The translations under genes were made by a program, and so were the position numbers. Shown in pieces: positions 912-17,787 of a DNA stretch of 20,000 nucleotides. Numbering within the stretch: position 1 is the stretch's first letter; every line of letters begins with the position of its first letter. The notes beneath the pieces are model-generated. The model saw nothing but the letters and a program-made list of their open reading frames with translations. It did not search any database and was not told the DNA's origin. This DNA is from an uncultured virus (IMG/VR IMGVR_UViG_3300031746_000009). Its lineage: Duplodnaviria; Heunggongvirae; Uroviricota; Caudoviricetes. Location: IMG/VR virus record IMGVR_UViG_3300031746_000009; one strand, 5' to 3'.

Positions 912-921
912 GTCAAGTCAC

Positions 922-1811: not shown

Positions 1812-1954
1812 AAATTGTTTTCTCCTCGTTTTGTTATGTTGCAGATTTCTTTAGCCACGCCTGCGTTGGGCGTGAACAACCCATTTGAGAAACCCAGCTT
1901 GTTGTCCACTGAGGAGAGCTTGCTCCCTGTCTCTCTGAAGGGGTCTAGCTATGA

Positions 1955-2149
1955 CTATGCGTTCTTCCACACTATGACGGCGACCGCGTTTGGAATTCCG
2001 TTAAGCCAACCGAACCAAACAACGTTGACCGATGTTACAGATGTGGCCGCTGCACACACGTCGTTGATTGCTTTAGCTAATGATCCAGCGGTTGTATCGA
2101 TGTCTCCTGTAGCGCAGGTTCCCGTTACGGTGCTTGTTTTAAAAGCCAT
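1955..2149 (-). CDS. Small hypothetical virion-associated protein
   Basis: 64 aa ORF with GGTGAGGTGA RBS inside the head module. Confidence 0.6.
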   Translation of the reverse strand: MAFKTSTVTGTCATGDIDTTAGSLAKAINDVCAAATSVTSVNVVWFGWLNGIPNAVAVIVWKNA

Positions 2150-2166
2150 TTGTCATTCACCTCACC

Positions 2167-3273: not shown

Positions 3274-3321
3274 GTTTTTTCACCTTTATGTTGTTGTATC
3301 CGATTTTTGTCATGTTTTAAG

Positions 3322-4035: not shown

Positions 4036-4637
4036 CAGTCGGGGAACACGTTGTGAAACTCTAGTTCACTGTGTTGTTGCCTGAATTCGTCTACGGCTTG
4101 GCAGACTTCTAACACTTTGCGGTGAAGATAGTCGTGTCCTCCGATTACTCCGCCCTTTTTCAGTAGCGGATAATAGTTTTCTATGTCCTGTTTCACGTTG
4201 ACGTAGTTGTGGTTTCCGTCTATGTATATGAAGTCTAAAGGTTCAGTTATGTCATCGTGGGCTTCGTTGGATGGTTTTCTGATAAATACTGTTTCGTTGA
4301 AGTTGCCCAGTTTGTCTTTAGCCGTTCTGTCTTTTCCCTGATAGTTTAATTGTCTTCCATGCTCCAAGTATGGAACGTAAGGGTCTATGAGGAACAGTTT
4401 CTTGACTGGCAACTCTTGAGTCATGTTTAAAGCGTTTTCGCCTGCTCCGACACCGATTTCTAAGCCTACAAGGTCGCCTGTTTTGAAATGCTGTTTCAGG
4501 AACATGGTCATTGGTCGGGGGACGCCGCTGATGAGGCTTTCGAGCTCAACCATGTCTTTGTAAAGTTTGGGTGCAAGCAACTTTACTATTGCATGGCGAA
4601 GCCGCATGGTCTTCATTCGCAAGTGCATACGGTTCAC
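4020..4637 (-). CDS. Class I SAM-dependent methyltransferase (Methyltransf_24-like)
   Basis: LEIGVGAGENA motif I, LIDPY, and LDFIYIDGNHNY..VKQDI..YYPLLKKGGVIGGHDY. Confidence 0.9.
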   Translation of the reverse strand: MNRMHLRMKTMRLRHAIVKLLAPKLYKDMVELESLISGVPRPMTMFLKQHFKTGDLVGLEIGVGAGENALNMTQELPVKKLFLIDPYVPYLEHGRQLNYQGKDRTAKDKLGNFNETVFIRKPSNEAHDDITEPLDFIYIDGNHNYVNVKQDIENYYPLLKKGGVIGGHDYLHRKVLEVCQAVDEFRQQHSELEFHNVFPDWWIIK

Positions 4638-5962
4638 TTGTTCAGGTTAGTGTCTGGTTGCCGTTGTTCAGGCGCGTTTCCAGTTGGAAACTTGTTGGGC
4701 GCCCAAGGGTTCTGTGCGGCTTTGCTGAGAAGTTCTTCGCCGCCCTGTTCTTTGGTTAAAGGTTTAAGGGTTGGGTCCATGAGTTTGCGGAGTTCGTTGC
4801 GGGTCATCCAGTCGCCCTTCACCTGCAACGTTTGGGCTTTGACTTGGTCGATTTGGGCTTGTTTAAGGTCATCTAGTTGGAAGCCGCCCATCCATTTGAA
4901 GCTGAACGGCTCGTCTGTTTGCTGTACTGCGTTGATGAGTTGACGGATGCCTGTTTCATAGTAGGTTTCTTCGTCGCCGATAAGTGCGAAATATTCTTGC
5001 TGGTTCACTTCGGAACCTGTGAGTGTTCCCGCTTGCACGCCGCGTAGAATGGCTAGTGGGATTGCGGAGCCTGCGCTGATGTTTTCCATGATGGGCAGAT
5101 AGTATTTGGTGGGGTCTAAAGCTACGCCTGCGGTGCCTTTGAACTCTATGGTTTGGTTCTCGTTGTGCGCGAAATAGGTGCGGGCACTAAGATTCTCGAA
5201 GCTGCCTTCTTCTACCCAGTCGTCGATGTCGCTTTTCTCTGCACCTGTGAAAGTCAAGTCGGGGAAGCCGTGGCCGTAACGGTACATGGTTTGTCCCATG
5301 CCCCACCTGATGTTTCTGAGGGTTACTATGTCGTCCCACACGGGGTCTAGGGTGCTTATTCCCATGTAATCATGTTCTAAGAGTCGTGATGCGAAGTGGA
5401 TTGTTCTTGTGTAGTGGATTTTAAGGTTGCTTGTTATTCCAGACTGTTTAACATTGTAGTATTCTGGGAGGCCGTAGCGTGGATTGCTTCTGTCTTTAAC
5501 TTCGTCTACTGACGCTATTTGTAGTGGCCCATACGCTTTTATTTCCTGTAGTTTCGGAGTGCCTGTGACGGGTTCCGCAAGAGTTTGTGCTGCATCCGCG
5601 TATCCTAAGACGATTGTTGCCCAACCGTAGGCTCTTTCGTAGACGGCCATTCGCATGAGTTCACGTTTTGCGTTGAGGCGTGTGAGTTCCTTCTGGATTT
5701 GCGTGTCAAACGACTTGTCTTGTTCGTTGCCTTCCTTGTAAAGTTGGAACCAGTGGTCGAAGATGTCGTGGGCGACGGTGAAGACGATTCTGTGGGCTAC
5801 GGGTTCGCGTGTGATTGCGAATGTGCGGTCTACGTCTTGGATTTGTGCGCCGAATTCTCCGCCTCCGCCTGTGCCGCCTAAAGGAATGGTTATGGCTGCG
5901 CCTCGTGGGACGGTTGTGCCTGAGGCTAGTCCGATGCGTTTAAGTTCAAAACGGTTGCTCAA
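4634..5962 (-). CDS. Portal protein (DUF1073-like family)
   Basis: 442 aa with RAYGWATIVLG, YGLPEYYNV, IHYTRTIHF, GISTLDPVWDDI, IPLAILRG and MTRNELR; downstream of TerL. Confidence 0.85.
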   Translation of the reverse strand: MSNRFELKRIGLASGTTVPRGAAITIPLGGTGGGGEFGAQIQDVDRTFAITREPVAHRIVFTVAHDIFDHWFQLYKEGNEQDKSFDTQIQKELTRLNAKRELMRMAVYERAYGWATIVLGYADAAQTLAEPVTGTPKLQEIKAYGPLQIASVDEVKDRSNPRYGLPEYYNVKQSGITSNLKIHYTRTIHFASRLLEHDYMGISTLDPVWDDIVTLRNIRWGMGQTMYRYGHGFPDLTFTGAEKSDIDDWVEEGSFENLSARTYFAHNENQTIEFKGTAGVALDPTKYYLPIMENISAGSAIPLAILRGVQAGTLTGSEVNQQEYFALIGDEETYYETGIRQLINAVQQTDEPFSFKWMGGFQLDDLKQAQIDQVKAQTLQVKGDWMTRNELRKLMDPTLKPLTKEQGGEELLSKAAQNPWAPNKFPTGNAPEQRQPDTNLNK

Positions 5963-6225
5963 TCTTTTGCTCTTCCTTTGCTGTGTATTTGTTTAAAGTC
6001 GAAGCCTTCACTGTTGACTACTCCACGGAAATGGCAGTTGCCGCATGAAACCTCCGCATCCCAACCTTTCGGGTTACGCACAAACTTTTCCAATACAAGG
6101 CCGTTCTGGCCGCAAGCTGTGCATGGTTGCTTGTTGACGAGGTCTTTGAAGTGTTTAGCTTCGGCAAGCGTGGCCAGGAGTGTGGATTCATGTTTTCTGC
6201 GGTTAAACCGTGTAAACCAACTCAT
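5959..6225 (-). CDS. Zn-ribbon protein
   Basis: CTAC...CGNC; 4-nt overlaps with both neighbours. Confidence 0.7.
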   Translation of the reverse strand: MSWFTRFNRRKHESTLLATLAEAKHFKDLVNKQPCTACGQNGLVLEKFVRNPKGWDAEVSCGNCHFRGVVNSEGFDFKQIHSKGRAKD

Positions 6226-6434
6226 TGATGAATCGCGCTCTCTCGCAAACTCTTAAGCCAATCCTTCATTTTTGCTTCAAAATCGTCTATTTGGTCAATG
6301 GATATGTCAAAGTTTGAAGAGACAAAATATGTGTATTCGCCAAGCAAATCTTTTTCCTTCAGAGTGTCACCTATCATTTTGGCTACTGCCTCCGCTTCTT
6401 CTTTGGTGGCATGTGGTGGGTCTAATATTTTCAC
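6222..6434 (-). CDS. Hypothetical protein
   Basis: 70 aa ORF filling the TerL-portal gap, ATGA-coupled to the next gene. Confidence 0.55.
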   Translation of the reverse strand: MKILDPPHATKEEAEAVAKMIGDTLKEKDLLGEYTYFVSSNFDISIDQIDDFEAKMKDWLKSLRESAIHQ

Positions 6435-6464
6435 GTGAATAATTTTCGTTTACATCACTCCTTT

Positions 6465-7742
6465 TTATCCTAGTCTCCAAGCGTCTGCGGGTCCACCACT
6501 CTTTTTCAGCTGCCAAAATGCGAGCGCCAACGCAATCACGCAGTCGTCATGGAATCCTTCAGGCGAACTGTAACGCTGGTTTCCGGATGGCGTTTTCGTG
6601 TATCCAAACAGGTCCAGCTCCGTCAAGAGTATGGGAATGTTTGGGTAAGAGATTTCGCCGTTTTCCAATCCTATCACCAAGTTTTCGATTAAGTCTTCTT
6701 TGCTTGGCTGAGTAATCTTGTAGCCTTTCACTTGGACGCCTTCGTGACGCATTTCGTCGAACACTGGGTCGCCTAAACCAGTAGAATCTATCAGTAGGGG
6801 TGCATGATACCGTTTTGCGGTGGCGGCTAACCATTCCCGTTGAAGGTGCCAGTCTCTGATTTGTCTGCGGTCAAACATGCAGACGTGGCCGTCTATGTCC
6901 AAGATGATTAGTACGGTGTAGTCTTGATATTTGGCTAGGTCTGCTCCTGCACGGTAACTCATGTCTTGACTGTAAGGCTCATAATGGGAGTCCAGATAAC
7001 CTTGTAGCGGCATTTGGATGCCTTGGATGTGATCTTTGATGCCTATGAAGACTGCGCCTACGTCGCTTAAGAATTCTCCGTCAAGTTCCTGTTTGCGGGC
7101 TCTTTCACTCATGTTTCGGGCGATAGCGTCAAGGTCTTCTTTATGGATGACTCCGCCCTTTTCAACGGTGTTGTTGGTTGATGGGAAACACCAACTTTTA
7201 AAGTCTTGGTCAAGCGGGTCATATCCTCTCATGCAGAGGAGGTAGTACCAGTTTCGTCCTTTCGGGGTGCCTGTGAACCATGCGCGTCCATGCTTATCCG
7301 CTAGGGCGGGAAGCACAGCGTAATCCCATATTTCCTGGCTCATTCCAGCGGGTTCATCTAGCCAAGCCCAAGTGTAGCCTTCGCCTCGACATGCTTCAGG
7401 GTTTTCTGCGCTACGGAAATGTATCGTCCGATTACCGATTAGCCGAATGTATTGGCTGCCGGGGGTTCTGTGAACCTCTTTGATGACTTGTTGTGGAAGA
7501 TATTCGAGCAAAGTGTTCCAACATTTTCCGAGGCTGCTTGACCCGTAGGATGGTGCTACGACGAGTCCGCTTGCAGACGGCGGGCTAGATAGGGTTGTCT
7601 TGATTGCTTCGTTTGCGCCCCACGTCGTTTTGCCCCAGCGTCTTCCGCAATGCAACATTCGGAACCGTGCAAGGCTCTGGTGAACCAATTGCTGGTCCTG
7701 TCTGTGCTGATAGTTGATTGTTAACTCCATTGTTTTGCTCAT
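6465..7742 (-). CDS. terL: Terminase large subunit (Terminase_6/6C type)
   Basis: Walker A GRRWGKT, Walker B AWLDE, TGTP coupling motif, nuclease motifs GADLA, DSTGLG and HDDCVIALALA. Confidence 0.95.
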   Translation of the reverse strand: MSKTMELTINYQHRQDQQLVHQSLARFRMLHCGRRWGKTTWGANEAIKTTLSSPPSASGLVVAPSYGSSSLGKCWNTLLEYLPQQVIKEVHRTPGSQYIRLIGNRTIHFRSAENPEACRGEGYTWAWLDEPAGMSQEIWDYAVLPALADKHGRAWFTGTPKGRNWYYLLCMRGYDPLDQDFKSWCFPSTNNTVEKGGVIHKEDLDAIARNMSERARKQELDGEFLSDVGAVFIGIKDHIQGIQMPLQGYLDSHYEPYSQDMSYRAGADLAKYQDYTVLIILDIDGHVCMFDRRQIRDWHLQREWLAATAKRYHAPLLIDSTGLGDPVFDEMRHEGVQVKGYKITQPSKEDLIENLVIGLENGEISYPNIPILLTELDLFGYTKTPSGNQRYSSPEGFHDDCVIALALAFWQLKKSGGPADAWRLG

Positions 7743-8142
7743 TCACAGGCCAACTTACCTTAATCTCTCCAATTTCAGTAGGCGTATTCAAGCCCATCCT
7801 CTTCAATTTTAAAGCGGTTAAAGCGTTAAACGCTACTTCAGGTTTCTCTTTCATTAGCCTGTAAAGAAGGCTGAACCATACAGGCTCCAAGACGCCGCTC
7901 TGATCCACAACCCGATAATACACCGCGAGAATATCGTGTACTTGGCACCGTGCAATATCCAGTTTCTCGCTGATCTGAGTGTAGCTTAAGCCTTCCTGTT
8001 GAAGCACCAGAATCTTTGCCAGCAGAATCTTGCGTTTCCAATCACACGCAGGCTTCTCGCTCAGCTTGAATTCGCTGTAATGTTCTCCGAGAACACGTTT
8101 AACCTCTTCAAGTTCTTCTATTGAATCCAGTTGCTCACTCAT
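7585..8142 (-). CDS. Putative terminase small subunit (HTH)
   Basis: HTH-like GLSYTQISEKLDIARCQVHDIL; IKVSW beta-strand typical of TerS C-termini; directly upstream of TerL. Confidence 0.65.
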   Translation of the reverse strand: MSEQLDSIEELEEVKRVLGEHYSEFKLSEKPACDWKRKILLAKILVLQQEGLSYTQISEKLDIARCQVHDILAVYYRVVDQSGVLEPVWFSLLYRLMKEKPEVAFNALTALKLKRMGLNTPTEIGEIKVSWPVNEQNNGVNNQLSAQTGPAIGSPEPCTVPNVALRKTLGQNDVGRKRSNQDNPI

Positions 8143-8294
8143 GACTTCTCAACCTTCAGACGACTATCACTATGAAAGAAAAACCCGCAGGACAAGTTAC
8201 TGCAAATCACCGACGTTTCAAACCCCGAAACCCTGACACACGTAGGAGAACCACATTCAGGACAAGCCTTAGAACGAACCTTAACCTCCCTCAT
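8139..8294 (-). CDS. Small Zn-ribbon protein (51 aa)
   Basis: Hand translation MREVKVRSKACPECGSPTCVRVSGFETSVICSNLSCGFFFHSDSRLKVEKS; stop overlaps the TerS ATG (ATGA). Confidence 0.65.
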   Translation of the reverse strand: MREVKVRSKACPECGSPTCVRVSGFETSVICSNLSCGFFFHSDSRLKVEKS

Positions 8295-8427
8295 AACCAA
8301 CCAACACCTTTTCAAGCAGCCTACGTTCCAACATCACTTCAAGGATGCGGGCAGCCATTTCTTCAGGCGTACGAGGCATTCGACGCCAACACCATAAACT
8401 ATCAGGCAAACGCTTCAGCTTGGACAT
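8281..8427 (-). CDS. Small hypothetical protein (48 aa)
   Basis: MSKLKRLPDSLWCWRRMPRTPEEMAARILEVMLERRLLEKVLVGYEGG; GGTG upstream; tiles the operon. Confidence 0.5.
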   Translation of the reverse strand: MSKLKRLPDSLWCWRRMPRTPEEMAARILEVMLERRLLEKVLVGYEGG

Positions 8428-8515
8428 CAGAACGTCTCACACCAGAACCCATATGAATGCACTCGCCTTTTCCCATACGAAGATTAAAATGATAATACCA
8501 TTCCTCGAACTTCAT
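8402..8515 (-). CDS. Small hypothetical protein (37 aa)
   Basis: MKFEEWYYHFNLRMGKGECIHMGSGVRRSDVQAEAFA with GGGTGA RBS. Confidence 0.45.
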   Translation of the reverse strand: MKFEEWYYHFNLRMGKGECIHMGSGVRRSDVQAEAFA

Positions 8516-8541
8516 TCCCTTCACCCATTAACAGGCAAACG

Positions 8542-8667
8542 CTAATAACAGTAGTCTTTGCCACCATGAAGCACCACAAACAACTCTGTAAACCTCCAAT
8601 AGTCCTTATCTGTTCGTATGAATCTGAAAAGCAGAGATAGAACCAAACACTTCCAACACACCACCAA
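8542..8667 (-). CDS. Possible small protein (41 aa, CxxC)
   Basis: TTG/GTG start, MVVCWKCLVLSLLFRFIRTDKDYWRFTELFVVLHGGKDYCY; start codon uncertain. Confidence 0.3.
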   Translation of the reverse strand: MVVCWKCLVLSLLFRFIRTDKDYWRFTELFVVLHGGKDYCY

Positions 8668-8751
8668 TCACCACAAGTTCAACAAGTCCCAAATCACCCC
8701 TAACACAAACACCCTTACGGGCAGCATTCAACTTTTTGTGTGTACTATTTG

Positions 8752-8795
8752 CATGGTTGTATGCTTGTGTTATGCTACTATATGCTTGTACTATG
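8752..8795. repeat. Phased TATG(C/T) repeats
   Basis: TATG at 8760, 8771, 8781 and 8792 (10-11 bp spacing). Confidence 0.55.
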
Positions 8796-8960
8796 TTAAG
8801 TATTAAGACATTAGAGTACACGTGCAACAACACAAAGACCATATGATACAGGTACGGCATGCGAGAGTACCCATGATCCTACTCAATCAGTGTTCACACC
8901 TAGCAGAGACACACCATACTCTATTACCTGCTTCCAATAGCCACGTGGTAGAGGCGGAGC

Positions 8961-9053
8961 GTATGTTTTGAGTATGGTTTGGGTATGTTTTGGGTATGCT
9001 GTGGTATGCTTGGGTTATGTTTTGGTATGTTTGAAGCATACTGGGTATGTATG
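8961..9053. repeat. Degenerate tandem 10-11 bp repeat with GTATG core (consensus about GGGTATGTTTT)
   Basis: GTATG at 8961, 8972, 8983, 8994, 9004, (GTTATG 9014), 9025, 9045 and 9049. Confidence 0.8.
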
Positions 9054-9371
9054 GTGTGTTGTTACTTACCTGTTAGTCATATCTTATGAGAGTATAGGCT
9101 TGGGATTGTGTTGTTGATTAAGTTTATTGTGTCTTTGTTAGTCGGGTCGTTTCCGGAATCGTTTTGGATTGCTCATTTTGTGTCCTCGTAGTTTCTTGTT
9201 TGATGGTTAAAGTGTAATTGTGAATGTGTTTGTCCATGCGTGGATTCACGTTTTGTGGGGGTCGCTTTTTGTTATGTTGTTTTGATGGATGATTTTTTAC
9301 GGTGCCTGATTTGGGCGTGTATTCACATATGTTGTTATGGTGTGTGTTTAACTGACTGTGTTCACATATTC

Positions 9372-9416
9372 CGATATGTTTATAAGTAGTTATGTGGGTG
9401 TGTGTAGTTAAGGTGA
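9372..9416 (+). promoter_or_regulatory. Archaeal-type promoter (TATA box TTTATAAG) and AGGTGA RBS of the early operon
   Basis: TTTATAAG at 9379-9386, AGGTGA at 9411-9416, ATG at 9423. Confidence 0.6.
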
Positions 9417-9422
9417 AATGGA

Positions 9423-9623
9423 ATGGTTAAGACAATAAGAATCAAAGAAGCAAACAGAATCGTACCTAACTATGAAGACTATCCAAACATAAGCGTTACT
9501 GGTAGCTTGCGGGGAATGCACGACAGGTTTGGCATGGTTCTGAAATACTATGTGCGGATCGGAGGCTTCTACTACTATCTAAGGGGTTATCCAAATATTG
9601 AGCAAATACTAGAGCAGATTTAG
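9423..9623 (+). CDS. Hypothetical protein (PNISVTGS..GM motif)
   Basis: 66 aa, strong RBS, first gene of the operon. Confidence 0.75.
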   Translation: MVKTIRIKEANRIVPNYEDYPNISVTGSLRGMHDRFGMVLKYYVRIGGFYYYLRGYPNIEQILEQI

Positions 9624-9645
9624 AGGCTGTTAAGGAAGTGTGTAT

Positions 9646-9771
9646 ATGAAGTGTCCGAAATGCAACTCGCTATATGTAGAGTTTCTCGACCTCGTACATT
9701 TTCCGAATGATAGGAAATGTAAGTTTTGTGGGTTTGTTTGGGAAGAGGCTGTTAGGGTGGTGAAAACATGA
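9646..9771 (+). CDS. Small Zn-ribbon protein (41 aa)
   Basis: MKCPKCNSLYVEFLDLVHFPNDRKCKFCGFVWEEAVRVVKT; ATGA overlap with the next gene. Confidence 0.75.
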   Translation: MKCPKCNSLYVEFLDLVHFPNDRKCKFCGFVWEEAVRVVKT

Positions 9772-10016
9772 GAAAAGGATCAAAATTCAGGTTGACATCT
9801 GACGCCGAAGAAAACTATAAGGATATTTTGAAAGAGCTGTTCGGTGACAAGTGGAGTGAACGTGTGTTCAGAGTTACGCATGTCGCACATAGTGTTGAGG
9901 AACACAGAGGATATGATGAAGGTGTAGCGCCACAAGGACTTTATGATTTTGAGGATGTAAAGTCTGGCAAAGAGATGTCTGTGTCGGTTTATGATTGGGA
10001 AATTGAAGAGGTTTAG
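9768..10016 (+). CDS. Hypothetical protein
   Basis: 82 aa, GGTGGTGA RBS. Confidence 0.75.
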   Translation: MRKGSKFRLTSDAEENYKDILKELFGDKWSERVFRVTHVAHSVEEHRGYDEGVAPQGLYDFEDVKSGKEMSVSVYDWEIEEV

Positions 10017-10089
10017 AGCGCCCCTGATGATGCTGTGCAACTCAGCGAAACACCACGATTTTTTATGGTGTCGGGTGAAGTGTGAACCT
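10009..10089 (+). ncRNA. Type I hammerhead ribozyme 1 (predicted cleavage after GUC, C10072)
   Basis: Stem I CGCCC(10019-23)/GGGUG(10073-77); core CUGAUGA (10024-30) plus an extra U; stem II GCUG-UGCAACU-CAGC; GAAA (10047-50); stem III CACCA-loop-UGGUG; UC; distal stem I AGGUUU/GAACCU. Confidence 0.9.
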
Positions 10090-10099
10090 AGAAGGTGAT

Positions 10100-10516
10100 A
10101 TGATGAGTACAAGATGTCGAATAGATTTCATTGTGAAGTGGATCGATGAGAATGGGAAAGAACACACCGATATAAGATGTGTTTACAGGCACAGTGATGG
10201 ATACCCAGAAGGTGTCTTGCCCGATCTCACCGAGTTCTTGAAGTGGAACAACGGACGCAACAACGATGTTGAATATACTACGGCGAACTTTATCTATTGG
10301 TCTAAGCGAAACATGGAGAAATACCTCAAGGAAGGCGAGGATTGGAATAGCCCAAACAGTTACGCTAGATTTGGTTTCGGTGTTTGTGATAAAGATTGCT
10401 GGCATGGTGATCTTGAATACTACTATGAAGTTTTCCCTGAAATTGGTGAGGTTAAGGTTTACAAAATGCCAGACAAAACCCCTCTCAAGACGGAAACTTT
10501 GATAATTACCGTTTAA
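10100..10516 (+). CDS. Conserved viral hypothetical protein with MSTR...YxHxDGYP...HGDxEYxY motifs
   Basis: AAGGTGA RBS at 10092-98 favours ATG 10100/10103 over the track's GTG 10082; protein (M)MSTRCRIDF...VYRHSDGYPEG...HGDLEYYYEV. Confidence 0.85.
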   Translation: MMSTRCRIDFIVKWIDENGKEHTDIRCVYRHSDGYPEGVLPDLTEFLKWNNGRNNDVEYTTANFIYWSKRNMEKYLKEGEDWNSPNSYARFGFGVCDKDCWHGDLEYYYEVFPEIGEVKVYKMPDKTPLKTETLIITV

Positions 10517-10585
10517 ACCCTTGAAAAGTCTCTGAGATGGGACGAAACTTAGAGTTTTTTTCTAAGTCGGGTGATGTTGAAATGG
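10509..10585 (+). ncRNA. Type I hammerhead ribozyme 2, U3-A8 core variant (predicted cleavage after GUC, C10568)
   Basis: Stem I ACCC(10517-20)/GGGU(10569-72); core UUGAAAA (10521-27); stem II GUCUC-UGAGAU-GGGAC; GAAA (10544-47); stem III CUUAGA-GUUUUUU-UCUAAG; UC; distal stem I CCGUUU/AAAUGG. Confidence 0.85.
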
Positions 10586-10824
10586 AAAAAGCTAGATGTG
10601 TAGATATGTCCACGTTGCCACGTGTGAAAGAGCAAGAGAACGGAAATGTGTATATGTGGTTTCAAAGTGAAGATATGAGCCACATCATAAGCTTGGGTGA
10701 AGGCGAGATAAGGGTTAAGACACCAACAGACAGATATGTTATCCCTGTTCGCTGCTATCCTAAACTTTCTGAAGCTGAAGTTCGCAGAGCCATAAGAAAC
10801 ACGATTTACGCAAGGCCGAGGTAG
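10582..10824 (+). CDS. Hypothetical protein (80 aa)
   Basis: Start reassigned to ATG 10582 (MEKARCVDM...) with GGTGA RBS at 10570-74; the track's ATG 10537 lies inside ribozyme 2. Confidence 0.7.
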   Translation: MEKARCVDMSTLPRVKEQENGNVYMWFQSEDMSHIISLGEGEIRVKTPTDRYVIPVRCYPKLSEAEVRRAIRNTIYARPR

Positions 10825-10831
10825 ATGTGGA

Positions 10832-10954
10832 ATGGATAGGAAGCAGGTTGAAGACATGTTAAAGGTGGACGAAACCTTTGACTGTTGGCGTGAAGCATAC
10901 CGGAAAGTTTACGGCAAATATCCTAAGGTGAAGCTGGTGGAGGTGGAAACATGA
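10832..10954 (+). CDS. Small hypothetical protein (40 aa)
   Basis: MDRKQVEDMLKVDETFDCWREAYRKVYGKYPKVKLVEVET; GAGGT RBS; ATGA-coupled to the next gene. Confidence 0.6.
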   Translation: MDRKQVEDMLKVDETFDCWREAYRKVYGKYPKVKLVEVET

Positions 10955-11100
10955 CAGACTATGACAATTTTGAGTTAGTGAGTGACGCGGTTAAAGACGT
11001 TGATCGAACTTTGATAAAGCTAGTAGCTATTCAGACAGAGATGGTGAAGCAGTTTGCTGAGGCTGTGCGGGTGCTGAATGAGATTCTTAAAAAATGTTGA
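10951..11100 (+). CDS. Small helical/coiled-coil protein (49 aa)
   Basis: MTDYDNFELVSDAVKDVDRTLIKLVAIQTEMVKQFAEAVRVLNEILKKC; GGAGGTG RBS. Confidence 0.65.
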   Translation: MTDYDNFELVSDAVKDVDRTLIKLVAIQTEMVKQFAEAVRVLNEILKKC

Positions 11101-11113
11101 GGGAGGTGGTTTG

Positions 11114-11257
11114 ATGCCGTTTGAAAAGCTAGATATCTACGCAATCGCTCACGACCTAATAGATAGTGGCCATGCCGAAGAGGGTTACATGCTTGTGCTA
11201 CTTCAGCAAATCCGTGACGAACTTAGGGAAATTCGGAAGCAGGGGGTGAAATCTTGA
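11114..11257 (+). CDS. Small hypothetical protein (47 aa)
   Basis: MPFEKLDIYAIAHDLIDSGHAEEGYMLVLLQQIRDELREIRKQGVKS; GGAGGTG RBS. Confidence 0.65.
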   Translation: MPFEKLDIYAIAHDLIDSGHAEEGYMLVLLQQIRDELREIRKQGVKS

Positions 11258-11388
11258 GTTCTTGGCGAAAGTGTGAAGCGTGTGGTTCAGATGAGCTAGA
11301 AAGGCTAGAGTCACATGACGGTAAAGACATATATGTTTGTTTAGACTGTGAACATACACAGACAGAGGTGAAAACAACACATGAGTGA
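11254..11388 (+). CDS. Small Zn-ribbon protein (TFIIB-ribbon-like, 44 aa)
   Basis: TTG start with GGGGTGA RBS; CEACGS...YVCLDCEH. Confidence 0.65.
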   Translation: MSSWRKCEACGSDELERLESHDGKDIYVCLDCEHTQTEVKTTHE

Positions 11389-11563
11389 TAGCAAGGTAGG
11401 TAAAGATTGGGTCGTATGGACATGTTTAGTTAGCCCAGAATCAGACGAGCTAGTCCGAGCCAAAGCTAGACATAAGGGTGACAAGTCAATTCTTACTGAT
11501 GAAGCATTGAAGCAGACCTATAAGCCTAAAGCCACGTTGCCGGATAATCCGACAACAACTTAA
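11381..11563 (+). CDS. Putative ribbon-helix-helix DNA-binding protein
   Basis: Alternating beta pattern VVWTCLVSPE, then helix, then KGDKSILTDEAL; GAGGTGA RBS. Confidence 0.55.
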   Translation: MSDSKVGKDWVVWTCLVSPESDELVRAKARHKGDKSILTDEALKQTYKPKATLPDNPTTT

Positions 11564-11580: not shown

Positions 11581-11607
11581 GTTCTTCCGCGTCTTCTTTG
11601 GCAAAGC

Positions 11608-12015
11608 CTAAGTCACCACCGCATCCACCATCATGTCCCAACTGTAACTGCCATCCGAAGCAGTTGAAGCTACACCTATGATCAGGTTGCCCTTCAAGCT
11701 GGAGCCAGCGTTCAAGAGTGTGCCGTTCTCAATCCACGTCTGCGACCATCCAACAGGCGGATATGTGATTAGTGACAGTGTATAGTTGTCTGTGCCTGTG
11801 TTTGTGACGTTGAATTCTACGAAGTAGCTAGAGGCTTTATGCACTTTGCCCCAGTCTATTGTTGTGCCATTCTGCCATTCCATGCCATTCAGATAGAAGG
11901 TTAAGCCAGATTCTACGGTTGCCTCGTTTGGGAACTGGGATTGCTGAATGATTGCGGCTGCACCTATGCCAACGGCTAGAGCGATTACGACGAGAACTAT
12001 GGTGCTAGACTTCAT
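11608..12015 (-). CDS. Membrane-anchored/secreted beta-sandwich (Ig-like) glycoprotein
   Basis: N-terminal hydrophobic helix; beta-rich body (FNVTNTG..YTLSL, LNAGSS, DGSYSWDMMV); four N-x-T sequons. Confidence 0.7.
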   Translation of the reverse strand: MKSSTIVLVVIALAVGIGAAAIIQQSQFPNEATVESGLTFYLNGMEWQNGTTIDWGKVHKASSYFVEFNVTNTGTDNYTLSLITYPPVGWSQTWIENGTLLNAGSSLKGNLIIGVASTASDGSYSWDMMVDAVVT

Positions 12016-12113
12016 CTTCCCATCTTCCTAAGAACCTTGTTAATGCGTTTACGTTTCGACTTCTTGCCAACGTGAACGTAAGCGGTGAACATTAACATTG
12101 CTTGTTCATTCAT
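12012..12113 (-). CDS. Small basic protein (33 aa)
   Basis: MNEQAMLMFTAYVHVGKKSKRKRINKVLRKMGR; ATGA overlaps at both ends. Confidence 0.5.
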   Translation of the reverse strand: MNEQAMLMFTAYVHVGKKSKRKRINKVLRKMGR

Positions 12114-12295
12114 ATTTTTGCTGCCTTCGAAGTCATATAGATAAGCTGGCTAGTCTTCACAAGCTTCCACTTGTCGCCCCAACCCCTCTTAAAGTGAAAG
12201 TGTAAGCCGCATGTGTCGCAACGCATTATCATCCATCCTGTGCGCTCGTCTTTCTCGTAGAGTTTGAGGTCACGTTGACACTGAGAACACTTCAT
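12110..12295 (-). CDS. Zn-ribbon protein (61 aa)
   Basis: MKCSQCQRDL...MRCDTCGLHFHF; start reassigned to ATG 12295, just after the upstream stop. Confidence 0.7.
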   Translation of the reverse strand: MKCSQCQRDLKLYEKDERTGWMIMRCDTCGLHFHFKRGWGDKWKLVKTSQLIYMTSKAAKI

Positions 12296-12297
12296 GT

Positions 12298-12441
12298 TTA
12301 CCACGAGTTTGTAGCCCACTTCCACATGAAAACAAGCATGTCCCAAAGGTGATCTCTAAGCGCGTAGCCAAGAATAAAGTTGATTGCGCCCCAGAATAAG
12401 GCGTAAGCCATGATTTTTCGGATGCCTTCAACCTGAACCAT
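12298..12441 (-). CDS. Small membrane protein (47 aa)
   Basis: MVQVEGIRKIMAYALFWGAINFILGYAL...; start 1 nt after the upstream stop. Confidence 0.6.
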   Translation of the reverse strand: MVQVEGIRKIMAYALFWGAINFILGYALRDHLWDMLVFMWKWATNSW

Positions 12442-12442
12442 T

Positions 12443-12577
12443 CTAAAGTCTCTCTGTGATTTGTATTCTACGTTTCGCTTCCATACACATTTTCTGAATA
12501 CTACGAGTACACTCATCATAGGTTGGGCAGTCTTTGTGAAAGTGGCAAGGTTGTTCTAGGTGAAGCGGATTCTTCAT
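12443..12577 (-). CDS. Small Cys-rich protein (44 aa)
   Basis: MKNPLHLEQPCHFHKDCPTYDECTRSIQKMCMEAKRRIQITERL; ATGA overlap with the upstream gene. Confidence 0.55.
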   Translation of the reverse strand: MKNPLHLEQPCHFHKDCPTYDECTRSIQKMCMEAKRRIQITERL

Positions 12578-13098
12578 GCTACCACTGTTTTTACAGCTAT
12601 CTTCATCTGCGCGATCTGCGTGTTCAAGTTGCTAACGTTGTCTCTGAGCCGCACGATTTCCTTATCTGCTTGGTCTAAGAGGTTTTGATAATGGTTTGTG
12701 GGGTCATTTGCTTTTAACGCCGTATTCTCTGCTTTAACTGCGTCTAGCTGTTGCAGAAGAGAGTCATTCGTAGATTGAAGGCTAGATGCTTGTCCACTTG
12801 TCTGGATAAGGTTGTTTGTGAGTCCGCTTATCTGCATTTTTGCTTGGTCTTGTTCTGCGGTGCGTCCAGTATTCGTCACGACCTTGCCGATGATTGTGCC
12901 TGTGATCGCTGTGCCCACGGCAAATAAGGGTGTGAACGCGGGGTTAGCTTGAAGATTCTTGTACGTGGGCATAACAAGGTTTGAAATTGTTGTGAGTGTC
13001 CACGTTGCTTTCTCTTGAACGAAGGGCACGCAGGTGAATAGGAGCCATCCGCCTGCTACGGCTAACGCTAAGAGTAAGGCTAATGCGAGTTTGTTCAC
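12574..13098 (-). CDS. Membrane protein with C-terminal coiled coil
   Basis: N-terminal TM/signal helix, a second Gly-rich hydrophobic segment, then a long Gln/Asn/Leu heptad region. Confidence 0.75.
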   Translation of the reverse strand: MNKLALALLLALAVAGGWLLFTCVPFVQEKATWTLTTISNLVMPTYKNLQANPAFTPLFAVGTAITGTIIGKVVTNTGRTAEQDQAKMQISGLTNNLIQTSGQASSLQSTNDSLLQQLDAVKAENTALKANDPTNHYQNLLDQADKEIVRLRDNVSNLNTQIAQMKIAVKTVVA

Positions 13099-13457
13099 AT
13101 GTTCACTTCCAAAGGCTTTAACGGGACACTGGGAAACTTGTCTGAACTGTCAACGAAATGTTGTAAGATGCCTTCCGAATATAGTCGAAACACGTCGTCA
13201 TAATGGTATAGTATTGTGTGGTTTCTTCGGACTCTGCGTCCATTATCATCGTAGTCTGTTGTCAAATGTGAGTAGGCTACGACTTGTTCACGTTCAAACT
13301 TGTTGATGTGTAATCCGTCGGCTGACTCGTTCTTTCCAAGCAGAAAAAGGAAGGAGAGGCTTTTCTCGCTTAACATATGGTCAACGTCGCCAGTTTGCTT
13401 TATTCTTGTGCCTTCACCGTTAAACCAGCCGTAGAGGAACTGGCCTGTTTCGGTCAT
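13095..13457 (-). CDS. GAP1-N-like (GTPase-associated protein 1 N-terminal domain-like) protein
   Basis: QFLYGW..G.G and DDNGR....NHT motifs; ATGA-coupled to the GTPase gene. ORF is solid, family assignment is by eye. Confidence 0.55.
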   Translation of the reverse strand: MTETGQFLYGWFNGEGTRIKQTGDVDHMLSEKSLSFLFLLGKNESADGLHINKFEREQVVAYSHLTTDYDDNGRRVRRNHTILYHYDDVFRLYSEGILQHFVDSSDKFPSVPLKPLEVNM

Positions 13458-14464
13458 GTGGCAAACTCCAAAATCGCGTCTATAAGGTCAGCGTAAGATT
13501 GTTCTGAACAGGCTGGTTTGCGCCAGTCACAGATTTCTTCGCTTTCTTTTGCTCGTATGATTTCGTGTTTTCCATCCCATGTTTTTGGAACATTATTGTC
13601 GCCACGTTCCACTTCCACAAAGGTTGGAAAATACCTTATTTTGGTTTGTGGATGGTCCACTTGATAGCTTTTGATTGCTTGACTCACTGAAGGATAAAAC
13701 GTGTCCATGAACAATGTGAGGTCGTTCTGGTTTGGGTCCATGATGTTGATGCCGCGATGTTCAATATGATATTTCAACTCGTCCCATTTGGTGATGACTA
13801 TAAAGATTGCTTTCAACTGTTTCTTGATTGAGTCTCGGTAATCGAAAATGTCGTTGAGCAATCGGACAAGGTTAACGTCTGGGTCACGGTGAAGGTTCTT
13901 ATCTGATTCTGTTTTGACTTGCGCGTTTTCTGTGCCTCTTCCTATCACAGCTCGGCTCGCATCAGCCACAGCTATGATGCCTTCGCTCTGCTTCAAATAT
14001 TTGTTGACGCTGTTCACAGCCGCGTAAGCTGCAGCGCCTAATGGTCCTACGGCTTTAGCGTATTGGCGAATGTTCATCTGCAACGTTTCGCCTGCCACGT
14101 CACAGACGGGAACTTGAATCTTTTTGAAGCCGCCAAACGGCATACTTGATTTGCGTGCTAACAGTAACCCTGCTTCAACGGCGTGAGAGTCGAATACTTC
14201 TGTTTTTTCTGGAAAATAGCCTGAACGAATATTGCTTATGTCGCCGTAGATGTTGCTGTTACGTTCTAAGATTCTACAGTAGAAGTCTGGCCGTGCGCTG
14301 CTCAAAGTTTGCGTTGTTAACCCTACAAGACCAACGATAGTGCTTTTTCCGCATCCGCTTGGGCCTATCAGGCTGAACCGTGTGTTACACTCATAGAGTT
14401 TGCTGGATAAGTAAGGTTGCTGATCCTGCACTGGTTTGCTGGAAAGAATAGAGGGAAGTCTCAT
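13454..14464 (-). CDS. TRAFAC-class P-loop GTPase (double-GTPase/ternary-system-like)
   Basis: G1 GPSGCGKST, probable G2 FPEKT, G3 DVAGE, G4 ITKWD; GGAG RBS. Confidence 0.85.
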   Translation of the reverse strand: MRLPSILSSKPVQDQQPYLSSKLYECNTRFSLIGPSGCGKSTIVGLVGLTTQTLSSARPDFYCRILERNSNIYGDISNIRSGYFPEKTEVFDSHAVEAGLLLARKSSMPFGGFKKIQVPVCDVAGETLQMNIRQYAKAVGPLGAAAYAAVNSVNKYLKQSEGIIAVADASRAVIGRGTENAQVKTESDKNLHRDPDVNLVRLLNDIFDYRDSIKKQLKAIFIVITKWDELKYHIEHRGINIMDPNQNDLTLFMDTFYPSVSQAIKSYQVDHPQTKIRYFPTFVEVERGDNNVPKTWDGKHEIIRAKESEEICDWRKPACSEQSYADLIDAILEFAT

Positions 14465-14476
14465 GGTTTAAGTCTC

Positions 14477-14878
14477 CTAACTGGCTGGGGCTTCTTCTTT
14501 CTTTTCAGTCACAGTCTTTAATGGAACTGGAGATACGTCTTGCTGTAGAGTTACTGGAGTCTGTTGTCCTAGGCCGACTCTGTTTCTTGCAGCTTGCATG
14601 ACTGGTTTATCCCAAAGATAGTGTTTCAAAACGATCAAGAAAATGCTGAATGATAGGCCGATGCCAATAATGATGACTGTTGCAGTTGCTAGTCCAGTCG
14701 TGCCCCACATGAGCATTCCTGTGAGTCCTCGGGTTATGCCGTTCACGATTGCTACGCCAGCCACTTCAACACCATAATAATAGAGTGTTGCACTGAATGC
14801 TGGTGAATAGAGACAAGCAATAGCGAGAACTAGCGAGACGAACAACGATATTATGATGAACCATACGAGTTTTCTCAT
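14477..14878 (-). CDS. Multi-pass membrane protein
   Basis: 2-3 hydrophobic helices and a polar C-terminal tail; GGAGGTG RBS. Confidence 0.75.
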   Translation of the reverse strand: MRKLVWFIIISLFVSLVLAIACLYSPAFSATLYYYGVEVAGVAIVNGITRGLTGMLMWGTTGLATATVIIIGIGLSFSIFLIVLKHYLWDKPVMQAARNRVGLGQQTPVTLQQDVSPVPLKTVTEKKEEAPAS

Positions 14879-14892
14879 TTTTACACCTCCAA

Positions 14893-15228
14893 CTATTTAT
14901 TGAAACCTACCTGACCCCACTTAACCGACAAAGGAAAAACCCTGGTCTCGCTTCGATTCAACACTTCACCATATTCCTTGTCTACAGCGTAAGCTGGCAG
15001 GTAGCCGAATGTCTGTGTCAATTTTTCACGGATGACAGGCTCGGTTTCCGCTTCAAAGACTTTCTCACCATTTTCTTTACAATAAAGGCAGAAGTCTAAA
15101 ACTATGCGGTTTGCTACCTCTCTTTCCGTGTGATGCTGCTTGCGTCTAACTTGAGCTTCCAAGCTTCTTACATGTGGCACTTTTCTGATCCTCTTGTGCT
15201 GCTTGAGGGATTCATATAGCGTCCACAC
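14893..15228 (-). CDS. Hypothetical protein
   Basis: 111 aa ORF heading the minus-strand operon; start codon uncertain. Confidence 0.6.
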   Translation of the reverse strand: MWTLYESLKQHKRIRKVPHVRSLEAQVRRKQHHTEREVANRIVLDFCLYCKENGEKVFEAETEPVIREKLTQTFGYLPAYAVDKEYGEVLNRSETRVFPLSVKWGQVGFNK

Positions 15229-15289
15229 TATTTTAGCGGACTCTGAAAGAAAGACTATGTTTGCAGCACGGTATCTTCTTTAGTGAGTG

Positions 15290-15430
15290 TTCCTATAAAG
15301 GTTTTATGGTTCTTGAGAAAACTGTTTCCAGAGTGAAGCACAAACAATGGTGTTTTTGGGTTGGTTTACTATTAATTATTTAGACTATTACTCTAAAAAA
15401 GTAGACAGAGAGCTTTTATAGCTCTAAGCC
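15290..15430. promoter_or_regulatory. Divergent promoter region; plus-strand TATA box TTTTATA inside inverted repeat AGAGCT-N5-AGCTCT
   Basis: AT-rich; TATA at 15414-15420 about 30 nt before ATG 15450 with no RBS (leaderless); CTTTATAG on the minus strand at 15293-15300. Confidence 0.5.
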
Positions 15431-15449
15431 TACTTTACCTTGATCCGCA

Positions 15450-17395: not shown

Positions 17396-17545
17396 ATGGC
17401 TAAACCAAACAAGCAAATCAACCTAACATTACCCGACGACTGGTATGAAGCATTAGAAAACTTGAAAACCGTCTACGGCGCATTGACTGTTCAAGATGTG
17501 ATTCGGGTTGTTCTTGCGGGCGTGTTGCATAAGGAGGAAAAGTAA
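17396..17545 (+). CDS. CopG-like ribbon-helix-helix regulator (49 aa)
   Basis: MAKPNKQINLTLPDDWYEALENLKTVYGALTVQDVIRVVLAGVLHKEEK; TAATG-coupled to the next gene; missed by the ORF track. Confidence 0.75.
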   Translation: MAKPNKQINLTLPDDWYEALENLKTVYGALTVQDVIRVVLAGVLHKEEK

Positions 17546-17787
17546 TGTTGTTTGAGCGGAATGAAAGTAAAGTTGCAAATCTGTTAGCCACCATCGACGA
17601 GCTTGTGGATCACGACAAAATAGAGGTCTTGGTAGAGTGTATTGTGGAATTGCAGAAGCAGATCGAGGAGCAGGAGAAGGCTATCAAAGAACTCAAGGAT
17701 AGACTTGAGAGTCACGAAACCTTTACGCCTGAGTTTTGTCGACAAGAAGCAGAGTTTCAGAAGCATGTTTTGGAGCTGAAAAAATGA
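17545..17787 (+). CDS. Coiled-coil protein
   Basis: 80 aa with heptads; AGGAGG RBS. Confidence 0.75.
   Translation: MLFERNESKVANLLATIDELVDHDKIEVLVECIVELQKQIEEQEKAIKELKDRLESHETFTPEFCRQEAEFQKHVLELKK

Follow-up and report, generated by a model that had tools for sequence, protein, structure and literature searches.

A conserved gene module in a lineage of tailed viruses is predicted to build a membrane-tethered GTPase switch

The DNA analyzed here, which we call the window, is a 20,000-nucleotide stretch of an uncultured virus (IMG/VR record IMGVR_UViG_3300031746_000009). The virus is tailed, as had been proposed: positions 3-8142 encode the large terminase (TerL), a portal, a protease, a scaffold, and an HK97-type capsid protein. 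The region of interest is one tight operon on the minus strand, running from 15228 to 11608 (Table 1). The original description of closely spaced or translationally coupled genes is borne out at the junctions. Specifically, the GTPase stop codon and the start codon of its partner gene, p120, overlap as ATGA, the p120 stop codon overlaps the GTG start of the 174-aa gene as GTGA, and the GTPase start lies 12 nt past the stop of the upstream gene, with GGAG before it. Similarly, GGAGGTG lies 5 nt ahead of the start codon that follows the basic 111-aa gene. The divergent intergenic region contains TATA-like A/T boxes and is the predicted promoter region of the operon.

Table 1. Features of the module and its context in the window
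Feature	Position	Strand	Basis or remark
Intergenic region, divergent	15229..15449	.	between the minus-strand operon and a plus-strand gene at 15450; sequence read
Basic 111-aa protein, module gene 1	14893..15228	-	iterative HMM; 22 members directly 5' of hairpin gene
133-aa membrane-hairpin protein	14477..14878	-	N-terminal TM, second TM near residue 64, charged tail
336-aa single-domain TRAFAC GTPase, DO-GTPase/YcjX branch	13454..14464	-	G1-G4 motifs
120-aa partner, "p120"	13095..13457	-	translationally coupled to GTPase
174-aa protein, N-terminal membrane hairpin + coiled coil	12574..13098	-	21 distinct relatives
Small single-TM protein, probably ~47 aa	12298..12441	-	ORF open to 12519; conserved part only this
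Zn-ribbon protein, ~61 aa, two CxxC pairs	12110..12295	-	sub-threshold Zn-ribbon matches; 3 members
135-aa N-anchored beta-sandwich (Ig-like) ectodomain protein, last module gene	11608..12015	-	HMM relatives
Small-terminase-like HTH protein, context	7585-8142	-	downstream of module
Large terminase (TerL), context	6465-7742	-	downstream of module

Five genes spanning 12298..14878 had been described as the unit. All five open reading frames are present on the minus strand with unchanged coordinates; the unit itself is larger, also taking in the basic-protein, Zn-ribbon, and Ig-like genes. The small TM protein had been read as 73 residues long, and an open reading frame of that length exists (12298-12519). 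Conservation is limited to its last 47 residues, the conserved section begins at a Met at 12441, and the two halves lie ~320 nt apart in a related locus, L030. The protein probably has 47 residues, not 73; in this form it is 98% identical in L030 and has a weak match in L038. A Zn-ribbon call starting at TTG 12346 is, likewise, probably overlong. The module genes are real rather than chance open reading frames; relatives of the GTPase recur in other loci and in database-wide clusters.

The GTPase carries G1 (GPSGCGKS, residues 34-41), G2 (Thr88), G3 (DVAGE, 122-126), and G4 (TKWD, 225-228) motifs; the G1 (as GPSGCGKST, 34-42), G3, and G4 motifs had already been recognized. The stretch DPDVNLVR at 194-201 is a hallmark of the family. 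GTPase relatives are present in 57 fetched loci besides the window (58 in total), and the GTPase profile retrieved 114 cluster representatives at E <= 0.001 from 1.84 billion proteins. The motifs are conserved across alignments of 16, 28, and 69 sequences: among the 69 members, K40, G125, and D228 are invariant, and G34, G39, T88, E126, and D196 are kept in at least 90%. The earlier assignment of this NTPase to the TRAFAC double-GTPase (DO-GTPase) kind, rather than to ordinary small GTPases or ATPases, stands. Specifically, Pfam DO-GTPase2 is matched by 26 and DO-GTPase1 by 20 of the 69 members at E <= 0.01, and any other Pfam family by at most two. The DO-GTPase models (PF19975 / PF19993) match 25 of 68 relatives at E <= 0.001, and their gathering score (27 bits) is reached by 12 of the 68, including the GTPase of locus L001, which is 40% identical to that of the window. 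The window GTPase has no Pfam match at E <= 0.1, so its DO-GTPase membership rests on transitive homology through these relatives.

The top fold matches of the GTPase are all GTPases, YcjX being the best. The YcjX family (presumably the one that Pfam names YcjX/DUF463) is matched by no member at E <= 0.01, where the 69 members match 13 families in all, and YcjX is absent among the best 60 of the 196 PDB matches at E <= 1 obtained with the 69-member profile. A link to YcjX is suggested by the fold match and not by sequence. PDB sequence searches with the window GTPase and with the profile gave only P-loop proteins among the matches listed, and the window's module proteins gave only P-loop or coiled-coil noise against Pfam, PHROGs, PADLOC, and NCBIfam. 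The GTPase matches no PHROG family, and a search of 50,697 deposited records of phages and archaeal viruses found no relative of it; its fold neighbors among viral proteins are exclusively of the giant-virus Ran/Rab/atlastin type. One GTPase open reading frame is present per locus in 57 of the 58 loci, and the remaining locus (L056) holds two fragments of one gene. Paired GTPases of the sort found in double-GTPase systems were not detected in these 58 loci.

The partner, p120, lies downstream of the GTPase in 47 of 58 loci; among the 11 loci lacking it, 10 break off within 170 nt past the GTPase, and in the remaining one the GTPase itself is broken. A 4-nt overlap joins the two genes in 26 of these 47 loci and in the window. 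Pairwise identities of GTPase and p120 are correlated across 14 dereplicated loci (r = 0.82), and those of the GTPase and the TM proteins are not (r = -0.02 and -0.07). Members of the p120 family are single-domain proteins of 112-132 aa. The motifs that had drawn attention to p120, QFLYG at 6-10 and DDNGR...NHT at 70-81, are present, and Arg74, at the tip of a hairpin (DxxGR) and followed by NHT, is invariant in 31 sequences. An AF2 model (pLDDT 88.8) places strands at 4-12 and 15-22, helices at 25-43, strands at 48-54, 59-69, and 75-85, and a helix at 86-100. This predicted strand-strand-helix-strand-strand-strand-helix order resembles the longin, roadblock, and PAS folds, and NPRL2/3, Lst4, FLCN/FNIP, Ragulator, and MglB/MglC rank high among its fold matches.

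The proposed GAP1-N identity of p120 found no support: 0 of 31 members match GAP1-N1 or GAP1-N2 (PF20013, confirmed to be GAP1-N2) at E <= 0.1, and GAP1-M and GAP1-C are absent from p120 as well. A p120 profile search found no longer proteins holding a p120-like domain, which is weak evidence. In a distant relative (contig C152 of genome G094), a p120-like domain opens a protein of at least 203 aa that has no Pfam match. The ESM Atlas returned no usable match for p120, and tblastn searches of plasmids with two distant DO-GTPase-like members returned none. Prediction of a complex of GTPase (69 rows), p120 (31 rows), GTP, and Mg gave an ipSAE of 0.00 in two runs without controls, a value that is uninformative either way.

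Upstream of the GTPase, the 133-aa protein has two hydrophobic stretches by Kyte-Doolittle analysis (three in a relative) and a charged tail rich in Pro, Glu, and Lys. Its family comprises 32 distinct full-length relatives, always just 5' of the GTPase, and every locus with upstream sequence has the hairpin gene in this position. The protein belongs to no Pfam or PHROG family. Passages of a review describe holins as possessing one or more TM segments and a charged hydrophilic C-terminus (PMC10791045). The 133-aa protein and its 32 relatives are likewise small TM proteins with two hydrophobic segments and a charged C-terminus rich in Pro, Glu, and Lys, an architecture that may be called holin-like, though it is not specific to holins. 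As noted at the outset, no holin or endolysin is apparent: no such Pfam or PHROG family was matched in the module or the window. The 174-aa protein has a conserved C-terminal end (hydrophobic-VVK/VVA) and, in Pfam, sub-threshold coiled-coil matches only. An hhalign comparison of this protein with the upstream hairpin family aligned the TM region with a probability of 92% and an identity of 10%; TM composition bias may explain this signal, and we do not take it as evidence that the two hairpin families are kin. By a crude hydropathy count, the confidently predicted TM proteins of the examined regions reside mostly in the module (4 of 7 in L103). An 84-aa open reading frame at 8606-8860 that was flagged by this count looks spurious.

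Relatives of the basic 111-aa protein have in common an Arg/Lys-rich N-terminal stretch and, mostly, a C-terminal GEVLxDSRGxGSFQ motif, at which the window copy has diverged. The window copy has no Pfam match at E <= 0.1, nor do 10 of 11 relatives, the other showing a sub-threshold match to Inhibitor_G39P; against PHROG, the window copy reaches only E 0.04-0.06, and 0 of 5 relatives match at E <= 0.001. The position of Zn-ribbon genes varies among the modules of relatives. In the Ig-like family, 6 of 12 relatives have sub-threshold Ig-like Pfam matches, and the Ig-like proteins contain 60 N-x-S/T sequons versus 24.7 expected from shuffles (3.14 per 100 aa versus 0.25 in the GTPases). The module contains no effector domain, and no PADLOC family scores above noise.

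The genes of the original prediction also keep company elsewhere: beyond the 47 of 58 loci that pair the GTPase with p120, module genes are present in 17 of 17 loci of one TerL clade (TerL at least 62% identical) for which at least 3.4 kb of upstream sequence is available, and the GTPase is present in 15 of these. Thus, the module is not a patchy accessory. Its content does vary. Two near-identical TerL-anchored loci, L124 and L125, have the GTPase without p120 and carry instead genes for a 98-aa protein and a 120-aa Zn-ribbon protein. L005/L119 retains the basic-protein, hairpin, GTPase, and p120 genes and, by HMM, has neither the coiled-coil nor the Ig-like gene. The order of the genes is stable over GTPase identities of 29-100% and two TerL types, and the module evolves much faster than TerL, with GTPase identity as low as 29% where TerL is 65% identical. 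In relatives, the module forms the first part of a series of genes leading on to those for the terminase and the head; of 13 long loci found by GTPase homology, 9 have the large terminase downstream of it on the same strand. In the window and in L003, L032, and L038, opposite-strand genes come after the module, not the terminase directly. Relatives of the window-type TerL in IMG/VR are only 27-39% identical and 0 of 40 have the module, a count that is uninformative regarding close kin. With respect to the host, the GTPase is carried by 2 of 401 genomes of the class of genome G001, one of which has it on three contigs of 2-3 kb. These occurrences, one of them on short contigs, do not suffice to name a host. 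That the host is an archaeon is plausible, though on weak evidence.

The hairpin, GTPase, and p120 genes are inherited and exchanged as one cassette between near-identical virus genomes. L030 and the window are 97.6% identical in DNA from ~13123 onward, and their GTPases are 33%, their p120 proteins 26%, and their hairpin proteins 52% identical. In four other sediment runs, read depth is ~20-90 over the flanks but 0-18 over 13212-14823, and contigs of two sediment runs link 13115 with 14858 through ~1.7 kb of dissimilar sequence. Deeply divergent trio alleles, set between near-identical flanks, are found side by side within the same sediment samples.

The best reading of the region is a conserved virus module that would build a membrane-tethered GTPase switch. 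The hairpin protein could anchor the GTPase or be under its control, and p120 would set the nucleotide state: it would be GAP-like if Arg74 reaches the nucleotide, and otherwise a platform of the longin/roadblock type or a PAS-like sensor. The action of the membrane proteins would, in turn, be gated by the GTP/GDP state. The notion is that the module sets the time of, or triggers, the late membrane event by which virions leave the cell, the hairpin proteins serving much as a holin does. We assign this role a probability of about 0.4; it is deduced solely from architecture and position, and the TM segments and charged tail of the hairpin protein were counted in its favor, as was the lack of any holin- or endolysin-family match in the window. 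Passages of a 2024 review describe the players in the egress of head-tailed archaeal viruses as completely uncharacterized (PMC10791045). Observations that run against an egress role are the retention of the GTPase without p120 in L124/L125, the module's position not directly before the terminase in the window, L003, L032, and L038, and the divergent trio alleles in otherwise identical genomes, a pattern also expected of conflict determinants. We know of no GTPase in any phage or archaeal-virus lysis system, and a literature search found none. For relatives of DO-GTPases, moreover, passages of Kaur et al. predict systems of conflict or stress rather than of lysis (PMC7159879). A more elaborate version of the egress reading, that the module is the egress machine of head-tailed archaeal viruses, in which a GTPase clock triggers holin-like hairpins, a longin-like Arg-finger partner sets the clock, and the pair is related to bacterial DO-GTPase/GAP1 conflict systems, strikes us as improbable. 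If it were true, the DO-GTPase/GAP1 conflict systems would be of viral lysis-timer ancestry, or the reverse.

The main rival, unlikely in our judgment, is a virus-borne conflict module that functions in superinfection exclusion, inter-virus competition, or counter-defense. Such a module would be a miniature of the DO-GTPase/GAP1 type: the Ig-like ectodomain or the membrane proteins would sense or block the invader, and the GTPase would set the threshold. The GTPase is homologous to DO-GTPases, which passages of Kaur et al. predict to form conflict systems near the membrane, with partners of the TM, Zn-ribbon, and FNIII types (PMC7159879). TM proteins, a Zn-ribbon, and a beta-sandwich ectodomain protein are all present in the module, and both the coexistence of deeply divergent trio alleles and the fast divergence of the module relative to TerL are in keeping with conflict. 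Accessory exclusion and defense genes, however, are usually patchy, turning over by gain and loss. That every one of the 17 informative TerL-clade loci has this module, in a constant position and diverged in situ to 29% identity, makes a compact accessory conflict system less likely. Neither an effector domain nor a PADLOC family above noise was found, GAP1 is undetectable in all 31 p120 members, and the published systems keep GTPase and GAP1 constant while effectors vary, whereas here it is the GTPase pair that varies.

More improbable still is a membrane-stress module of the YcjX kind, which would keep the host membrane intact or energized while infection proceeds, or would remodel the envelope for a purpose other than release. 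No GTPase member matches the YcjX Pfam family at E <= 0.01, and Pfam and NCBIfam searches of the module proteins revealed no PspA-like or YcjF-like partner, even though YcjX is the best fold match and TM proteins are concentrated in the module. To our knowledge, the function of YcjX itself has not been established. Also in favor of a stress role, DO-GTPase family proteins encoded next to psp operons are described as having a predicted function in membrane-related stress (PMC11237479). Finally, the genes could be neighbors that have no common function, the GTPase and p120 serving a cytoplasmic process (replication, partition, or translation) and the TM proteins being unrelated to it. This we consider very unlikely: the hairpin gene is always directly 5' of the GTPase and is replaced together with it, gene order is stable across the full range of GTPase identities and both TerL types, and the junctions are tight or overlapping. 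The near-zero correlations between GTPase and TM protein identities would nonetheless fit unrelated neighbors, as would the lack of coiled-coil and Ig-like genes in L005/L119 and a basic first gene that, judging by its composition, could bind nucleic acid.

Hardly any GTPase switches are known from viruses of prokaryotes, and here a whole virus lineage retains a GTPase, predicted to be such a switch, along with membrane proteins and a small partner dedicated to it, in front of its morphogenesis genes. The module is a concrete, clonable candidate for egress of head-tailed archaeal viruses. Whatever its role, it extends the DO-GTPase family to viruses, and p120, with its one invariant Arg, offers a minimal model for the regulation of DO-GTPases. 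The natural allele swap of the three-gene cassette provides ready-made specificity controls.

Among known systems, holin cassettes of the lambda S-R-Rz type are placed ahead of terminase genes. Analogous to phage holin lysis cassettes, the module has small TM proteins with charged C-terminal tails at the start of a run into the terminase, high sequence diversity, and cassette exchange; it differs in having no endolysin, spanin, or holin-family match, and known lysis cassettes have no counterpart of its GTPase and partner. We know of no p120-like partner for the stress GTPase YcjX. That protein (PDB 6nz4-6nz6), whose gene lies next to the psp operon together with that of the membrane protein YcjF, is longer (~465 aa) with larger inserts, and has no sequence-level match to the virus GTPase among the best 60 of the 196 PDB matches or the Pfam families matched.

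The DO-GTPase/GAP1 ternary systems (Kaur, Burroughs, Iyer, and Aravind 2020, eLife; PF19975, PF19993, PF20013) share with the module a TRAFAC GTPase, a co-varying partner gene directly 3' of it (r = 0.82 here), TM proteins, Zn-ribbons, and a beta-sandwich component in the same operon, and predicted action near the membrane. Passages of Kaur et al. 2020 report a conserved glutamate in the DO-GTPase Walker B motif (PMC7159879), and the virus GTPases likewise have a Glu after the Walker B DxxG (E126 of DVAGE in the window). The context here, by contrast, is viral and not cellular, and each locus has a single GTPase gene; a pair of paralogous GTPase genes or domains occurs in 38% of the published systems and is not strictly defining. 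Zn-ribbon and TM segments are separate genes here rather than fusions to the GTPase, an effector domain is lacking, and it is the GTPase pair that varies instead of forming the constant core. GAP1 has three domains (N, M, and C), whereas p120 is a single domain of 120 aa with no GAP1-N, -M, or -C signal (0 of 31). Finally, the longin/roadblock pairs (Rag-GATOR1 NPRL2/3, FLCN-FNIP/Lst4, C9orf72-SMCR8, MglA-MglB, and SRbeta-SRX) resemble the virus pair in joining a GTPase to a small alpha/beta partner with, as modeled for p120, the longin strand order, and the Arg-finger longin GAPs described in passages of PMC12290439 find their likeness in the invariant Arg that p120 is predicted to expose on a hairpin.

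The window holds a portion of a tailed-virus genome in which the module lies upstream of the head and packaging genes, on the same strand. Translated ORF calls bear out the five genes, and all of the motifs, named in the original prediction. The span proposed for the unit was too short, however, as further module genes lie on both sides. Read from the sequence, the junctions are tight: the GTPase stop overlaps its partner's (p120) start codon in ATGA; the p120 stop overlaps the following gene's GTG start in GTGA; and the GTPase begins 12 nt past the preceding stop, with GGAG in front. Conservation of the 73-aa ORF is limited to its last 47 residues. Neither the basic first gene nor its relatives match a known family. 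Most relatives (e.g., L001:2583-2885) share a C-terminal GEVLxDSRGxGSFQ motif, lost from the window copy. Unlike in the window, module and terminase genes are adjacent in most relatives.

Features of the module and its surroundings in the window
Feature	Coordinates	Strand	Remarks
80-aa coiled-coil protein	17545-17787	plus	weak PHROG matches to Rz-like spanin (E 7.5e-4) and holin (E 8e-3), probably a coiled-coil composition effect
Basic 111-aa protein	14893-15228	minus	first module gene, behind divergent A/T-rich intergenic region
Upstream hairpin, 133 aa	14477-14878	minus	
GTPase, 336 aa	13454-14464	minus	
p120, 120 aa	13095-13457	minus	
Coiled-coil hairpin	12574-13098	minus	
Zn-ribbon	12110-12295	minus	distal end of module
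N-anchored beta-rich protein	11608-12015	minus	distal end of module
Opposing gene block	8172-11563	plus	between module and terminase genes
82-aa protein	9768-10016		matches phrog_34111 (E 2.6e-9)
Head/packaging genes	8142 down to 3	minus	small-terminase-like HTH protein, large terminase, portal, methyltransferase, head protease, scaffold-like protein, HK97/encapsulin-type capsid protein
237-aa protein	3322-4035	minus	between methyltransferase and head protease; no family match; DSD-type acidic motif could suggest a glycosyltransferase-like enzyme

Beyond its P-loop, the window GTPase has no family match among Pfam, PHROGs, PADLOC, NCBIfam, or PDB sequences. A word-based search yielded 16 relatives (44-100% identity), and a profile made from them, run against 1.84 billion proteins, retrieved 114 cluster representatives (E <= 0.001), almost all of them 290-365 aa in length. 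Three residues (K40, G125, and D228) are invariant across 69 full-length members, and G34, G39, G82, P85, T88, E126, and D196 are at least 90% kept; the conserved positions span G1, G2, G3 (as DxxGE), and G4 (TKxD). The same profile search returned P0053, a 6831-aa protein with 22 separate stretches matching profile positions 90-134, which could reflect a repeat protein or an artefact of composition. Relatives of the GTPase are absent from 50,697 deposited phage records, from PHROGs, and from the prokaryotic-virus proteins of BFVD. In full-text literature (main articles) on Bathyarchaeia viruses and on archaeal-virus GTPases and egress, we found no published description of the GTPase, and main-text passages of a Bathyarchaeia virus preprint do not mention any GTPase.

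The GTPase and the 120-aa gene do co-occur elsewhere, as anticipated. Specifically, in 58 loci (57 fetched through GTPase homology, plus the window), a p120 homolog follows the GTPase in 47; 10 of the remaining 11 have at most 170 nt left past the GTPase, and in the eleventh the GTPase itself is broken. The 4-nt overlap recurs in 26 loci, while in others a small Zn-ribbon gene sometimes intervenes. Arg74 is the sole invariant residue among 31 p120 sequences (14-76% identity), with F7, L29, D70, N79, T81, and P109 at least 90% kept. The likeness to GAP1-N originally proposed for this protein is not supported: none of the 31 matches GAP1-N1 or GAP1-N2 at E <= 0.1. A profile search found no longer p120 forms, which is weak evidence. 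A confident AF2 model (pLDDT 88.8) has the order strand-strand-helices-strand-strand-strand-helix and places Arg74 at the hairpin tip between the last two strands.

Long loci share a gene order that starts with the basic protein and a two-TM hairpin whose tail is Pro/Glu-rich. The GTPase and p120 follow, in some loci separated by a Zn-ribbon; then come a hairpin protein that carries a coiled coil and has a conserved C-terminus, in some loci another two-TM protein, and an N-anchored beta-sandwich protein. The large terminase (TerL) comes next, on the same strand, in 9 of 13. The beta-sandwich family carries 60 N-x-S/T sequons versus 24.7 expected from shuffles, and 6 of 12 members have sub-threshold Ig-like Pfam matches.

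Because these loci had all come via the GTPase, an independent search was anchored on the phrog_38-type terminase. It gave 37 loci whose TerL shares at least 62% identity. Of these, 17 include 3.4 kb or more of upstream sequence, and every one of the 17 carries module genes; the GTPase is seen in 15 (the other two are cut and retain distal genes only), and p120 in 13 of those 15. In the exceptions, L124 (5231-5886) and the near-identical L125, the GTPase has CETAGE, not CDVAGE, as its G3 motif and is followed by two other small proteins, one of 98 aa and a Zn-ribbon protein of 120 aa. The module is absent from 19/19 loci with TerL at 25-41% identity and from 40/40 distant relatives of the terminase type that the window itself carries. 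Module-bearing viruses have two large-terminase types, phrog_38 (L001, L004, L005, L019, L028, and L046) and Terminase_6N/phrog_2 (the window, L002, L021, and L045). The phrog_38 terminases are mutually 65-73% identical, and the GTPases that accompany them share 29-40% identity with that of the window; GTPase identity falls to 29% where TerL is at 65%. The module thus marks a virus lineage, occurs with both types of terminase, and has diverged while keeping its place.

Over 14 dereplicated loci, GTPase and p120 pairwise identities correlate (r = 0.82), whereas correlation of the GTPase with either hairpin family is about 0. Locus L030 is 97.6% identical to the window in DNA from about 13123 through the coiled-coil gene, yet its GTPase, p120, and upstream hairpin are 33%, 26%, and 52% identical. 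When contigs from four other sediment runs were placed on 11600-15300, summed depth was about 20-90 in the flanks and 0-18 in bins 13212 to 14823; in two runs, contigs bridge positions 13115 and 14858 with about 1.7 kb of dissimilar sequence. Taken together, the correlation, L030, and these contigs show that hairpin, GTPase, and p120 are co-adapted and can be replaced as a single cassette, of which at least two deep alleles coexist in nature. Between window 13116-14857 and L030:1-3019, the alleles diverge inside flanks about 97-98% identical, and the alternative allele is deeper than the window allele in two other sediment runs.

Regarding the host, one relative lies on a contig of 2 kb from a Bathyarchaeia MAG, and the GTPase occurs in 2 of the 401 genomes in that class. 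In one of these two, a distant module copy (L062, 835-6744, on contig C152 of Bathyarchaeia MAG G094) adjoins a P-type cation ATPase gene and comprises a wHTH protein, a hairpin, and a 313-aa GTPase; its p120-like domain forms the start of a longer protein (at least 203 aa, cut by the contig end) for which Pfam gives no match. The best deposited relative of the window portal belongs to a haloarchaeal virus (E 9e-12), and the sequon-rich ectodomain fits archaeal N-glycosylation. An archaeal host is likely, on thin grounds; Bathyarchaeia are a lead.

What might the module do? The GTPase has an intact catalytic motif set, its partner is dedicated and coupled, and the hairpin protein is exchanged with both. 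The module also holds further membrane proteins and an ectodomain protein and is kept lineage-wide ahead of the packaging genes. We suggest that the hairpin would hold the GTPase at the membrane, that p120 would set its nucleotide state, and that this state would gate the membrane proteins. Our tentatively favored reading is egress timing (probability roughly 0.4). Its behavior is that of an essential yet fast-evolving membrane function, the hairpin proteins have a holin-like architecture, and no other lysis candidate is visible in the window. Moreover, egress of head-tailed archaeal viruses is described as unexplained in passages of PMC10791045.

The main rival, a conflict or exclusion function, is supported by kinship to DO-GTPases and by the allele polymorphism of the trio; we consider it unlikely, though a serious competitor to egress timing. 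A membrane-stress role like that of the stress GTPase YcjX is more doubtful again. That the module's genes are unrelated neighbors is the least probable reading.

Concerning known systems, p120 Arg74 may be likened, by analogy, to the Arg finger that passages of PMC12290439 describe for longin-domain GAPs. For the GTPase, the DO-GTPase kind originally proposed was right, the form was not: here it is single-domain and single-copy. A Pfam scan of the 69 members gave DO-GTPase2 in 26 and DO-GTPase1 in 20, with any other family in at most 2. The gathering score is reached by 12 of 68 relatives, including the L001 GTPase, 40% identical to that of the window. In passages of Kaur et al. (PMC7159879), DO-GTPases are defined as a family of TRAFAC type whose Walker B motif contains a conserved Glu, which the window's DVAGE matches. 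Fold evidence and the sequence evidence gained through relatives are thus in agreement.
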